From a virus (Duplodnaviria; Heunggongvirae; Uroviricota; Caudoviricetes): DNA of 14,391 nucleotides. The notes below the pieces were generated by a model. It saw only the letters and a list, made by a program, of their open reading frames with translations. It searched no databases and was not told the origin of the DNA. Below are positions 4,609-12,860 of this stretch, in pieces (position 1 is the first letter of the stretch; each line of letters starts with the position of its first letter). The translations under genes were made by a program, and so were the position numbers. The stretch lies in IMG/VR virus record IMGVR_UViG_2675903650_000028; one strand, written 5' to 3'.

Positions 4609-4787
4609 TATCGCGTCCTCAACAATGAATTTTGTGATGCGGTGCCTGGTGCCTCCAGGTGACGTTAACCAGTTAATAATTAACGCCGGATACAGAGAAC
4701 CCACCCATAAGAACCAATACGGAAGTCAACTGGCCTTTTTAACTGTTCCGCGTGCGCTGAGCCGCATTCACCGCATCACAAAATTCA

Positions 4788-5174: not shown

Positions 5175-5303
5175 ATGTTAAAATCAACGCTTATTGCTAA
5201 ATGCCTTTATCAAAATCGCATGGTAAGCAGCATTTCAATAGGCGAATCTGTAGTTAAAAGTATTTTCGAAGAGTACTTTCGAAGAGTACTTTTCTGGGCG
5301 TGA
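5175..5303 (+). CDS. Doubtful 42-codon ORF antisense to the dicB operon
   Basis: ATG 5175 is preceded by AGGAGG (5165-5170), which can pair within a CCCUCAGGAGGG hairpin. The ORF contains a tandem 13-nt repeat (not a multiple of 3), which argues against real coding. Confidence 0.2.
   Translation: MLKSTLIAKCLYQNRMVSSISIGESVVKSIFEEYFRRVLFWA
5265..5290. repeat. Perfect tandem 13-mer TTCGAAGAGTACT x2, near-palindromic (AGTACT / TTCGAA cores)
   Basis: Read directly from sequence; preceded by a partial third copy (AGTATT). Confidence 0.7.
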
Positions 5304-10718: not shown

Positions 10719-11141
10719 ATGAAAATGACTGAATTAACAAAAGAACAATTAATCGAAGAAGCCAAATTAAAAATAGCGATTACGAAATGCCACCCCAATT
10801 CAGGGATGGCGCGAGTAGAGGGCGAGTTATTCAAAATTGCACTGGCATCGCTGGAAGCAGAGCCGATAGCGTGGCGATATCGCTACGTGAAAAAAGGTGT
10901 TATGGACTCTCAGGGGGAGTTGTGGGTTGGTGACTGGAAATATGTACCGAAAAAAGAGGATTGTAACGACAGGCCGAACTATGAAATTCAGGCCTTATTC
11001 ACTGCCCCACCAGTCCCGGTTACATCAGAAGAACTGGTTAAAGCTGTGCACTTTTATGAACAACTAAAACGCGAAAATCCACCAGCATCCGGCAACCAGA
11101 TTAATGGGTTAACTATGCCGGTTAAACGACCAGCCGACTGA
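10719..11141 (+). CDS. Hypothetical protein (140 aa)
   Basis: ORF after a 90-bp structured intergenic gap; alternative start at ATG 10725. Confidence 0.6.
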   Translation: MKMTELTKEQLIEEAKLKIAITKCHPNSGMARVEGELFKIALASLEAEPIAWRYRYVKKGVMDSQGELWVGDWKYVPKKEDCNDRPNYEIQALFTAPPVPVTSEELVKAVHFYEQLKRENPPASGNQINGLTMPVKRPAD

Positions 11142-11352
11142 AAAACGGAAACCTGATTACAGATTCCCAGATAAGGCAATGAGCTACCTGGCGTAGAGTG
11201 GGCTGATAAGTATGGGGAATGTTTTACGATGAATACTTAGACTAAAGAGTTTGTAACGCTATGTAAGTGATTTTTTCTGGTTTAGATATTTATATGTCCG
11301 GCCAAATTGAGGTGTGTTTAAATGTAATTGCACATTGATTGTAGGGGGAATA

Positions 11353-11532
11353 ATGAAAAACGCATTGCAGTTTTTGTTTGTTGCGTTCTGGTTGTTCGCA
11401 TCATGTATGCCCATCATCTTCACAGCAAGGTATATGGAAAAAATTGATGTTTTGATATTAATGTTTGGACATATAAATGCCCTTTTTTTAGGGGTGTTCA
11501 TGGCGGTCACGTGCATTGAATACTGGCGGTAA
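11353..11532 (+). CDS. Small putative membrane protein (59 aa, two hydrophobic segments)
   Basis: Internal ATG 11353 preceded by AGGGGGA. Hydrophobic stretches ALQFLFVAFWLFASCMPIIF and IDVLILMFGHINALFLGVFMAVTCI. Sits in an AT-rich segment. Confidence 0.5.
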   Translation: MKNALQFLFVAFWLFASCMPIIFTARYMEKIDVLILMFGHINALFLGVFMAVTCIEYWR

Positions 11533-11587
11533 ATACAGCGAACGCTATTGGTTTAGTTGGATATTTACTGTGCCGGACAAAAACGGT

Positions 11588-11615
11588 TTGCAGGGAAATC
11601 TTAGTTAAGTAGAAT
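11588..11615 (+). promoter_or_regulatory. Putative hok mRNA promoter (TTGCAG-16 nt-TAGAAT)
   Basis: Read directly from sequence. Would start the transcript near 11622, giving a message of about 415 nt to the terminator at 12036. Confidence 0.45.
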
Positions 11616-11684
11616 GACTGTGGGTGCTTGAGGCTATCTGTCTCAGGCATGAACACCAAAAGGCAGATAGAGAAAAGCCCCAGT

Positions 11685-11743
11685 TAACATTACGCGTCCT
11701 GCAAGACGCTTAACATTAATCTGAGGCTCAATCCATGCTGAAC
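11685..11743 (-). ncRNA. Putative Sok-like antisense RNA (approximate)
   Basis: Minus-strand promoter-like TTGCCT-17 nt-TAACCT (plus coordinates 11778-11750). The transcript would be complementary to the SD and start of the upstream in-frame ORF (ATG 11735) and would contain hairpin GCGUC-UUGCAG-GACGC (11693-11708). About 60 nt. Confidence 0.3.
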
Positions 11744-11791
11744 ACATGTAGGTTAGCCTCTTACGTGCCGAAAGGCAAGGAGAAGCAGGCT

Positions 11792-11947
11792 ATGAAGCAG
11801 CAAAAGGCGATGTTAATCGCCCTTATCGTCATCTGTTTAACCGTCATAGTGACGGCACTGGTAACGAGGAAAGACCTCTGCGAGGTACGAATTCGAACCG
11901 GCCAGACGGAGGTCGCTGTCTTCACAGCTTACGAACCTGAGGAGTAA
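11792..11947 (+). CDS. hokD: Hok-family type I toxin (HokD/RelF-like)
   Basis: 51-aa product MKQQKAMLIALIVICLTVIVTALVTRKDLCEVRIRTGQTEVAVFTAYEPEE: Hok signature with one transmembrane helix and CEV.IRTGQTEVAVF. An in-frame upstream start at 11735 gives the 70-aa track ORF (mok-like; not resolved). Confidence 0.85.
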   Translation: MKQQKAMLIALIVICLTVIVTALVTRKDLCEVRIRTGQTEVAVFTAYEPEE

Positions 11948-12015
11948 GAGACCCAGCGGGGGAGAAATCCCTCGCCGCCTCTGATGTGTCAGGCATCCTC
12001 AACGCACCCGCACTT

Positions 12016-12036
12016 AACCCGCTTCGGCGGGTTTTT
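12016..12036 (+). terminator. Intrinsic terminator (AACCCGC-UUCG-GCGGGUU + U5) ending the hok transcript
   Basis: GC-rich stem with UUCG tetraloop and T-run, read from sequence. Confidence 0.8.
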
Positions 12037-12162
12037 CGTCGCATTATGAGGTTGTAATTTTAGCTACCATGAGACTATCCTAAGGATCTCAAACAGATCT
12101 ATTTTGTATCAAATTTGGTGCATGGCTTTGCCAATAATCGGAAAACAAAAGGACTCATTAGT

Positions 12163-12342
12163 ATGAGCTGCCCACTCAAAAAACACACGCGGTTGAGTAT
12201 TCCGCCTCGCGATAAAAGCGTTGTGGCAGTCCCTCGCCCAGTGATTGATGAAAACTGCGCACATCGTGAACAAGTGAAAAATGCTTTTGATTTCGGTTTT
12301 TCTCGTTATGAGAAAGCCATGGAAGAACTTTCAAAAGTGTAA
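12163..12342 (+). CDS. Small protein upstream of the Doc-family toxin (candidate antitoxin, unclassified)
   Basis: 59 codons from ATG 12163 with AAGGA SD 9 nt upstream; the track ORF starts at GTG 12115. Its stop lies 10-19 nt before the toxin start. No Phd/YefM-like motif recognised. Confidence 0.45.
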   Translation: MSCPLKKHTRLSIPPRDKSVVAVPRPVIDENCAHREQVKNAFDFGFSRYEKAMEELSKV

Positions 12343-12351
12343 TGATGGGTA

Positions 12352-12846
12352 TTGTACTCTATGGCTGAGATTGTTGAAGGAGTGCATTACCTTACGGTTG
12401 ATGATCTTGTTGAAATCAATCATTCCCTAATTGAATTACAGACGCCAGATGAGCCCGTTGGTGTTCTGAGTCCAGATAACTTAAGTTCTTCTCAGGCCCG
12501 TCCCAGCATGGTTCGATGGTATGAACAGACTAATGACATGTTTGTACTGGCATCGGTATTGATTGAAAGTCTGATTCAGAATCATCCGTTTGCTAATGCG
12601 AACAAACGAACAGCTATGATGGCTGGTTACGTCTTCTTGTTGTTGAATGGCTATGAGTTAACAGCACCAGGCGATGAAATCGTGGAAATGGCAGAGGGAC
12701 TGGCCTGCAAAACCTATACTCGAGAAGATCTCGAGAACTGGTTGTGTTATTGGTCTCGCGCGTATGACAGCCGGGAATTATGTAAAACAAGCGCAACTAT
12801 TGTTTTGTATGAAACTATCAAGCTTAAAATAGAACAGCAAAACTAA
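12352..12846 (+). CDS. Doc-family (Fic/Doc) toxin
   Basis: Motif HPFANANKRTA matches the Doc-type H-x-F-x-(D/N)-(A/G)-N-K-R signature. Start is ambiguous (TTG 12352 or ATG 12361) and has a weak SD. Confidence 0.7.
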   Translation: MYSMAEIVEGVHYLTVDDLVEINHSLIELQTPDEPVGVLSPDNLSSSQARPSMVRWYEQTNDMFVLASVLIESLIQNHPFANANKRTAMMAGYVFLLLNGYELTAPGDEIVEMAEGLACKTYTREDLENWLCYWSRAYDSRELCKTSATIVLYETIKLKIEQQN

Positions 12847-12860
12847 AGGTGCTTCCAATG

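Follow-up and report, generated by a model that had tools for sequence, protein, structure and literature searches.

A conserved 59-codon frame beside the hok locus of an Escherichia coli prophage, a probable gene for a small two-helix membrane protein

Introduction

Does the stretch of low guanine-cytosine (GC) content that borders the hok locus of a lambdoid prophage of Escherichia coli contain a genuine gene and, if so, what might its product do? The question arises from IMG/VR record IMGVR_UViG_2675903650_000028, a 14,391-nucleotide (nt) stretch of Caudoviricetes DNA (hereafter the window, whose coordinates are used throughout). A sequence-only reading of this record had pointed to a 59-amino acid (aa) open reading frame (ORF) in segment 11142-11560 and had suggested that it encodes a small membrane protein carried by a moron. 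We refer to this frame, located at 11353-11532 on the plus strand, as ORF59. Exclusion factors, toxins and proteins that modulate host membrane complexes have repeatedly been found among the small membrane proteins carried by phages, and ORF59 is a clean, short and testable candidate for the small-protein field.

The statement towards which we lean, taken as a whole and with reservations, is that ORF59 is a genuine gene, that its product is a membrane-embedded helical hairpin, that it is prophage cargo inherited together with hok/mok/sok and, as a guess, that it acts as a non-lethal intramembrane modulator or exclusion-type factor. The evidence presented below bears on each of these parts separately.

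Conservation of the 59-codon frame

Close relatives of ORF59 (at least 76% identity) are found only in E. coli and Shigella, and say little on selection. A phmmer search against 1.84 billion representative proteins detected a second clade (P0041/P0047, E=8.7e-10), whose protein is also 59 aa long and aligns with ORF59 without gaps at 44% identity. When the DNA of the window was compared with that of a clade-2 locus (L012), the ORF was found to be 59% identical, with 25, 18 and 30 differences at the first, second and third codon positions. The proportion of non-synonymous differences (pN) was 0.337, and that of synonymous differences (pS) was 0.721. None of the other five frames is free of stops in both copies. 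In an ungapped, position-by-position comparison, the flanks are 23-37% identical, which is around the level of unrelated sequence.

The chance of such an outcome was estimated by introducing 73 random substitutions into ORF59 in 20,000 simulated trials. The frame remained open, with its ATG and stop, in 0.17% of them. The BLOSUM62 score observed between the two clades is 160, while simulated scores were 53.5 ± 17.4 and reached a maximum of 126. A purine-rich Shine-Dalgarno (SD) sequence is also kept before the same ATG; in clade 2 it reads AGGGA and lies 6 nt 5' of the start. Because frame, length, start and stop are conserved, pN is far below pS, the simulation never reached the observed similarity and the SD is kept, comparison of the two clades establishes that the plus-strand 59-codon frame has been under purifying selection over the long term. 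In our judgement, ORF59 is very probably a real gene for a membrane protein.

Hydrophobicity is a different matter. ORF59 has a grand average of hydropathy (GRAVY) of 1.15, and two spurious ORFs elsewhere in the window have values equal to or above it. Hydrophobicity alone is therefore not beyond chance, and what appears to lift ORF59 above chance is conservation between clades.

We considered whether the real gene might lie on the opposite strand, where an 85-aa ORF (11516..11259) is open in the window and has been annotated as ‘hypothetical protein’ in the record of phage PhiR42_1 (PV340562.1). This candidate was rejected, and we regard it as barely credible: the corresponding frame of clade 2 contains two stops, pN (0.41) and pS (0.42) for this frame are nearly the same, and its product, rich in N, K and H, has the composition expected from the antisense of a transmembrane-coding frame. 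The antisense call in PhiR42_1 spans 10959-11210 of PV340562.1 (L002 4161-4412, minus strand) and runs across the ORF59 stretch. In two other records, ON470612.1 and ON470619.1 (vB_EcoS), the feature at this stretch is mislabelled ‘hornerin’.

GenBank and UniRef entries for the ORF59 protein are described as ‘hypothetical’ or ‘membrane’ (e.g., A0A0J2DWW3_ECOLX and A0A2S5RMW9_ECOLX). No full-length RefSeq WP accession was found among the cluster members read, and a literature search did not find the peptide string; SMP7, reported in a CFT073 Ribo-seq preprint, is a different protein. A third clade was sought by phmmer (1.84 billion proteins), by a profile search (5.8 billion proteins), by tblastn of phage and plasmid collections and by a scan of one genome per species, and was not found. 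These searches returned E. coli and Shigella copies of the two known clades only, plus one clade-1 copy on a 9.5-kb plasmid record labelled Klebsiella oxytoca.

Variation among copies and the possibility of a non-functional frame

Of 5,426 complete E. coli genomes, 1,585 carry clade 1, at 90-100% identity, and 1,050 carry clade 2. For the study of diversity, 43 haplotypes were drawn from 71 clade-1 loci. Within the cassette to which it belongs (see below), no segment varies less than ORF59: 5.6% of its sites vary, compared with 15% in the hok coding sequence, 17-18% in the spacers (22 of 120 sites in spacer/leader 11233-11352) and 30-31% in the hok leader and 3' untranslated region (UTR).

Intact 59-aa and 72-aa forms are found on at least 1000 contigs each, and truncated forms on 11 contigs at most. 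The 72-aa form is a GTG-start version of the same frame (11314..11532 in the program-made ORF list), which is open further upstream of the ATG. Disrupted copies are rare and stem from frameshifts at a run of seven T residues and from insertion sequence (IS) ends. Variants P0020, P0021, P0024 and P0025 terminate in ...FFRGVHGGHVH past the T run, and several database variants finish in IS-derived sequence.

Several observations weigh against the reading that we favour, and those concerning the gene itself are the following. The Prokaryotic Genome Annotation Pipeline (PGAP), as used in RefSeq, leaves ORF59 unannotated in the six genomes inspected, five with clade 1 and one with clade 2. Just two clades exist, both from E. 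coli/Shigella, so that the comparative evidence amounts to a single deep split; furthermore, all clade-2 copies occupy one chromosomal locus, and their intactness may be mere shared ancestry for that reason. Lastly, clade-1 polymorphisms within ORF59 comprise 10 non-synonymous and 0 synonymous changes, mostly conservative (A16V, M28I, I31V, M37I, F38S, H40Y, A43V, M50I, V52G and T53M), in contrast with 15 and 10, respectively, in hok. Under a neutral expectation the 10:0 ratio has a P value of 0.036, or 0.15 if singletons are omitted. Recent purifying selection at the protein level is not demonstrated in clade 1. The ratio fits the usual excess of slightly deleterious variants over short timescales, and we leave it unexplained.

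Might ORF59 then be non-functional, either a chance hydrophobic frame in a T-rich, AT-rich spacer or a dying gene, in a segment that is only a spacer or leader for hok? The 10:0 ratio, the silence of PGAP, the spurious ORFs of similar GRAVY and the failure to find a promoter (see below) would all suit such a view. We nevertheless consider it improbable: the features shared by the two clades, including the SD, and the low diversity of ORF59 within the cassette argue against it, and hok does not need the segment, as many hok loci begin at 11603.

If ORF59 is a gene, as we hold, its absence from the RefSeq annotation of the six genomes inspected is likely an annotation gap for a small membrane protein. 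Even if it proved to be silent cargo, the wrong-strand annotation of PhiR42_1 is corrected and the anatomy of a very common prophage cassette is clarified.

Predicted protein

The product of ORF59 (MKNALQFLFVAFWLFASCMPIIFTARYMEKIDVLILMFGHINALFLGVFMAVTCIEYWR) is encoded from an ATG at 11353 to a TAA stop at 11530-11532. A strong SD had been claimed by the sequence-only reading and is indeed found, separated from the ATG by 3-4 nt. The claim of two hydrophobic segments has also held up. Kyte-Doolittle maxima over 19 residues are 2.14 (around residues 7-25) and 2.15 (around residues 33-52), and AlphaFold2, run on a 9-sequence alignment, predicts helices at residues 2-24 and 30-58 with a mean predicted local distance difference test (pLDDT) of 73. 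The polar loop between them, A25-R-Y-M-E-K-I-D32, is short. The C-terminus (...CIEYWR) comes straight after helix 2, with no charged tail. Helix 1 is strongly hydrophobic and does not resemble a signal-anchor-release (SAR) helix.

Residues invariant between clades are W13, S17, C18, P20, I21, I22 and T24 in helix 1, and F38, G39, N42, A43, L44, E56, W58 and R59 in helix 2. G47, which completes a G39xxxA43xxxG47 stripe, is kept in both clades save in a rare variant, P0049 (G47V). Polar residues predicted to lie within the membrane (S17, T24, N42 and E56) are conserved. From helical-wheel arithmetic we infer that the invariant residues of helix 1 form a single conserved face, and that helix 2 displays the G39xxxA43xxxG47 stripe beside F38/N42/F49/E56. 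On this basis, the putative family can be defined as 59-aa proteins with W13, S17-C18-x-P20-I-I-x-T24, F38-G39-x-x-N42-A-L44 and a C-terminal E-x-W-R, encoded upstream of hok.

Prophage setting and the hok/mok/sok cassette

The window matches a Rac/Qin-like lambdoid prophage of E. coli AST205 with 100% identity. The prophage starts with int, xis, exo, dicB and ydfABC, followed by cI-like and cro-like genes and a YdaT-family gene. Replication genes, DUF977, DUF4406, an ead/Ea22-like gene and a hypothetical gene (10719-11141) come next. An unannotated gap of about 650 nt, hokD (11792-11947), a Doc-family toxin gene, DUF968, RusA and a Q-like gene complete the order. ORF59 sits in the unannotated gap, and is prophage cargo in the variable region between the replication and DUF968/RusA/Q modules. 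Proximity to a hok locus had been stated in the sequence-only reading, and both the Rfam sok model and the PGAP call of hokD bear it out (Table 1).

Boundaries of homology were mapped by comparing the window with IMG/VR and E. coli loci, 80 of which have a right end that is not limited by the contig. The left break falls at 11060-11200, inside the upstream gene. The right break falls at 12030-12050, just past the hok terminator, in 67 of the 80 loci, and at ~11790 in seven; the latter position is that of the hok start codon and is a recurrent IS insertion point, seen in CE10, PhiR42_1 and 7 IMG/VR loci. Of the 80 clade-1 loci with such right ends, 79 retain the hok leader, if not more, downstream of ORF59. 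Because the breaks flank both together (11060-11200 and ~12040), ORF59 and hok/mok/sok appear to move as one mosaic cassette whose right edge is the hok terminator.

In clade 2, ORF59 is found in a decayed prophage relic at ttcA, the Rac attachment site (L012 4984-7200; L017 1072-4521). The order is dbpA, ttcA, an integrase remnant, a DUF1627 fragment, the ORF, sit-permease remnants, uspF and ompN. A hok pseudogene lies 56 nt 3' of the ORF (VTKKDLHQVRI*GGQMEVDIY versus VTRKDLCEVRIRTGQTEVAVF) and is itself divergent, with 57% aa identity. As clade 2 also has hok directly downstream, the adjacency of ORF59 and hok predates the split of the clades. Integrase, hok and sit genes have all decayed in the relic, and ORF59 is intact. 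The relic adjoins remnants of sit genes, which encode a Mn/Fe ABC transporter; a full sitABCD-like operon is present in L017. Their presence recalls the sit-carrying Perceval prophage of LF82 (PMC9928086).

This constant neighborhood raises the possibility that ORF59 is a partner of Hok, a third cassette protein that would gate, neutralize or potentiate Hok during prophage induction. Although their DNA has diverged by 41%, both clades have ORF59 immediately 5' of hok, the divergent hok remnant of clade 2 is consistent with co-divergence, the hok leader is retained almost throughout clade 1 and no terminator was found between the two genes. In addition, an unrelated one-helix ORF of 34 aa (WP_001278450.1; MSDDISLAMEGALAVIAVVGVYCLVVFLMDRLGN) fills the same slot in other prophages. 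Preceded by the SD AAGGAGGG and annotated by PGAP, it lies just upstream of the hok promoter at L101 2357-2461 (O157:H7 G5295) and at L102 ~1300-1400, on the minus strand (LF82 Tritos), and occurs in 1,469 places in 674 genomes. Like ORF59, it combines a strong SD, a tiny membrane protein and the same slot and strand relative to hok; unlike ORF59, it has a single helix and is annotated, and its sequence is unrelated, so that it is a positional analogue only. At L101 2238-2321, just upstream of the 34-aa ORF, we also noticed an unannotated 27-aa hydrophobic ORF (MIWPEAFAITGVAIAIDFLVYVICRWG) that overlaps the end of a DUF551 gene.

The dependence of ORF59 and hok is, however, one-way only. Loci of the hokD type occupy 12,169 places in 4,937 genomes, against 1,664 places for ORF59, and many of them begin at 11603, preceded by other genes. 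One and the same Hok protein, WP_000813254.1, is found both with and without ORF59, therefore showing no pairing specificity, and the clade-2 relic keeps ORF59 with no functional hok. A hok locus so widely shared can act as a recombination anchor that drags its neighbor along. A Hok partner is thus an unlikely identity for ORF59. We grant slightly less credit to a general version of this view, in which hok/sok cassettes of lambdoid prophages recurrently carry a small membrane protein, ORF59 or the unrelated 34-aa protein, that gates or neutralizes Hok. The small protein would be made from an early transcript reading into hok, and the phage could in this way time its own type I toxin during induction or superinfection. 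With ORF59 upstream of hok here, and an unrelated small membrane ORF at the equivalent place in O157-type and LF82-type prophages, prophage hok loci may have protein partners that escaped notice.

Composition of the low-GC segment

GC content is 0.382 in 11142-11560 and 0.468 across the window, in agreement with the sequence-only reading, which had described about 400 bp of clearly lower GC. Windows of equal length with GC as low or lower make up 3.2%, and the lowest-GC stretch of the window lies elsewhere (0.36, near 5231). The part of the description that does not stand is that of a single AT-rich unit: the segment is composite, and its first 91 nt are the decayed tail of the upstream gene. 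GC values are 0.44 in this tail (11142-11232) and 0.383 in ORF59 (11353-11532), with the lowest value in the leader between them (Table 1).

The upstream gene matches phrog_660 (E=2.4e-47) over profile positions 1-131 of 193, and is shortened to 140 aa. Strain SCAID has an intact homologue of 171 aa, while the equivalents in ST131, CE10 and MRSN346647 are PGAP pseudogenes (‘frameshifted; internal stop’). When the SCAID protein was used in tblastn, the last ~30 codons were found to persist out of frame and with an in-frame stop (EKRKPDYRFPDKAMSYLA*SGLISMGNVLR versus KKAQPDCKLPEKAMDYLKRNGLISVEDVLR). Beside this decayed gene, the shorter ORF59 remains intact. A terminator-like hairpin followed by TTTTT is found on the minus strand (11169-11146), just past the stop of the upstream gene and inside the decayed tail; it is absent as a conserved feature from the SCAID-type allele.

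Expression signals

No sigma-70-like promoter above background was found upstream of ORF59: the best site reaches 6.2, and the window contains 69 sites with a score of 6 or more. The best minus-strand candidate at ORF59 scores 6.0, which is likewise not above background. Between the upstream gene, ORF59 and the hok promoter no terminator was detected, the best hairpin having -5.2 kcal/mol. The SD of ORF59 is canonical and exposed in an unstructured leader. An RNA element as an explanation of 11142-11560 was rejected on the grounds that no Rfam match was found and that folding was no better than in shuffled sequences (z = +0.69 for the ORF59 leader, z = -0.54 for the whole segment).

The simplest reading of these signals would be co-transcription with the early-right operon. 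ORF59 would be expressed by read-through, mainly upon induction, and the transcript would continue into hok and end at the hok terminator. The hok transcript proper is predicted to start near 11622, the position at which the Rfam sok/hok-leader model begins. In LF82, RNA-seq detected hokD at 3792-fold over the prophage background (PMC9928086); the LF82 prophage with high hokD has no ORF59.

The absence of signals of its own bears on the proposal that ORF59 is a moron. Deviant GC (0.38 versus 0.47) and mosaic edges are found, but the edges enclose ORF59 and hok together, and neither a promoter nor a terminator belonging to ORF59 was detected; the sole strong terminator is that of hok (12014-12037). 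A self-contained moron is therefore not what we observe: the mosaic, lower-GC unit is ORF59 plus hok/sok.

Comparison with known small membrane proteins

The sequence-only reading had considered toxins, exclusion factors and holin-like modulators, and profile searches failed to place ORF59 among them. Pfam hmmscan at E<=10 gave only a spurious match to a viral glycoprotein (9.5 bits). PHROGs and NCBIfam gave no match, nor did GhoT or holin families; among the defence models of PADLOC-DB, no family matched either clade at E<=10. A search of PDB by sequence was negative, and Foldseek against PDB retrieved just generic or designed helical hairpins, all with E>2. Judging from these searches, ORF59 would belong to no described family, including Hok/Gef, GhoT, holins and those in PADLOC. 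We regard it as a new addition to the broad class of small membrane proteins carried by phages: its distribution is narrow and, although conserved, it has no Pfam, PHROG or NCBIfam model.

Likenesses to known systems are nonetheless seen. Hok/Gef proteins are also small, very hydrophobic inner-membrane proteins and prophage cargo, here sharing cassette and strand with ORF59. However, Hok has one N-terminal helix and a periplasmic domain that contains cysteine, whereas ORF59 is predicted to have two helices (2-58) and almost no residues outside the membrane. Hok is controlled by mok, Sok RNA and fold-back of its mRNA, while neither an antisense RNA nor a structured leader was found for ORF59. 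ORF59 has no match to Pfam HOK_GEF (PF01848), and the Rfam sok model matches 11622-11797 only, not the ORF59 region. More generally, type I toxins are accompanied by an antisense RNA and a leader that blocks the SD; the ORF59 region shows no minus-strand promoter above background, structured leader or Rfam match, and a cis-antisense RNA is probably absent.

GhoT, the toxin of a type V toxin-antitoxin system of E. coli, has 57 aa and two predicted helices. Its length is nearly equal to that of ORF59 and both are two-helix hydrophobic hairpins, but ORF59 has no match to Pfam GhoT/OrtT at E<=10 and none in NCBIfam, and no GhoS-like antitoxin gene is adjacent; its neighbors are the phrog_660 pseudogene and hok.

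Class II holins such as the pinholin S21 of phage 21 have two transmembrane domains, an N-in/C-in topology and a small-xxx-small stripe in helix 2. ORF59 has the glycine-zipper-like stripe of helix 2 and may resemble S21 in its two predicted transmembrane helices and, as far as charges alone indicate, in an N-in/C-in topology. Differences are that ORF59 has no charged C-terminal tail, dual start, SAR-like helix 1 or Pfam/PHROG holin match, and that it lies outside the lysis cassette: in AST205, the holins and an M15 peptidase endolysin are ~7 kb downstream (L001 19296-20333).

Imm of phage T4, an 83-aa membrane protein with two helices, blocks superinfection. ORF59 is likewise a small two-helix membrane protein, and both would be early if ORF59 is on the early-right transcript. 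No sequence relationship was detected between them, and no promoter of ORF59 active in lysogens was found.

Possible functions

Since almost no residue lies outside the bilayer, ORF59 would have to act through helix-helix contacts within it. Candidate contact surfaces would be the conserved W13-S17-P20/I21-T24 face of helix 1 and, in helix 2, the G39xxxA43xxxG47 stripe beside F38/N42/F49/E56. The partner might be ORF59 itself or another inner-membrane protein. As a guess, we tentatively take ORF59 to be a non-lethal intramembrane modulator or an exclusion-type factor, and not a regulated killer toxin.

The remaining points on the unfavorable side concern this interpretation. Small-xxx-small motifs are common in transmembrane helices. 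The likely topology, N-in/C-in with a periplasmic loop of 5-8 residues, comes from charge counting only; in clade 2, the N-terminus begins with MRK and the loop, SEYLTE, is acidic. An exclusion factor is weakened because no lysogen promoter was found, and a factor that protects the lysogen would need one.

Could ORF59 instead be a membrane-damaging toxin, akin to GhoT, pinholins or type I toxins, that forms oligomeric pores through its small-xxx-small helix and depolarizes the inner membrane? Its size and its hydrophobic hairpin are fitting, the stripe and the intramembrane polar residues are conserved, toxin modules lie nearby (hok/sok downstream, the Doc-family toxin further on) and database variants have been broken by frameshifts and IS ends. 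We find this rather doubtful, and less plausible than a modulator. A potent toxin is disfavored because the strong SD is exposed in an unstructured leader and neither antisense RNA nor antitoxin was found, because ORF59 is not part of the lysis cassette and ends without a charged tail, and because the clade-2 ORF has stayed intact while the regulators and neighbors around it in the relic have decayed. The lack of a match to toxin or holin families, a helix 1 that is not SAR-like and the rarity of disrupted copies speak in the same sense.

Our guess at an order of preference thus places a modulator or exclusion factor first and a pore-forming toxin second; a partner of Hok and the absence of any function come last, on a par.

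Features of the locus and additional observations

Coordinates are collected in Table 1. The frame at 11735..11947 is presumably mok, an assignment that we make from established knowledge of hok/mok/sok loci.

Table 1. Features of the ORF59-hok region (window coordinates).
Feature	Position	Strand	Basis or remark
Upstream phrog_660-family gene	10719..11141	+	PHROG match; hypothetical protein in PGAP
Decayed 3' tail of upstream gene	11140..11232	+	tblastn with SCAID homologue
Spacer/leader of ORF59, 120 nt	11233..11352	+	GC 0.325, lowest-GC part of the segment
Shine-Dalgarno GGGGGA	11344..11349	+	read from sequence; GGAGGA in most relatives (alignment)
ORF59, putative gene for a 59-aa two-helix membrane protein	11353..11532	+	ORF listing, hydropathy, AlphaFold2, cross-clade comparison
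T7 homopolymer in ORF59	11483..11489	+	frameshift hotspot in database variants
Spacer before hok promoter	11533 to ~11586	n/a	position
Promoter-like site of hok mRNA, TTTGCA-17-TAGAAT	11587..11615	+	promoter scans, score 9.0, among the top 10 sites of the window
hok leader, sok and mok regulatory region	11622..11797	+	Rfam RF01794, 118.9 bits, E=4e-27
mok-like overlapping frame, 70 aa	11735..11947	+	ORF listing
hokD-type toxin gene, 51 aa	11792..11947	+	PGAP WP_000813254.1 at identical AST205 locus
Intrinsic terminator of hok mRNA, CCCGC-TTCG-GCGGG then TTTTT	12014..12037	+	hairpin -10 to -12 kcal/mol

Two Rfam matches below threshold were also recorded. One, to STnc100, lies just upstream of dicB (4631-4785, minus strand; 33.5 bits, gathering threshold 47). 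The Qin prophage of K-12 carries dicF at the matching position; DicF was not reported among the Rfam matches of the window. The other, to isrK, overlaps the 3' UTR and terminator of hok (11956-12037, plus strand; 26.7 bits, gathering threshold 50).

Past the hok cassette, 12163-12846 (plus strand) contains a 59-aa hypothetical ORF and a gene annotated by PGAP as ‘death-on-curing family toxin’. The pair is probably Phd/Doc-like, which would make 11200-12850 a small cluster of toxin-type cargo.

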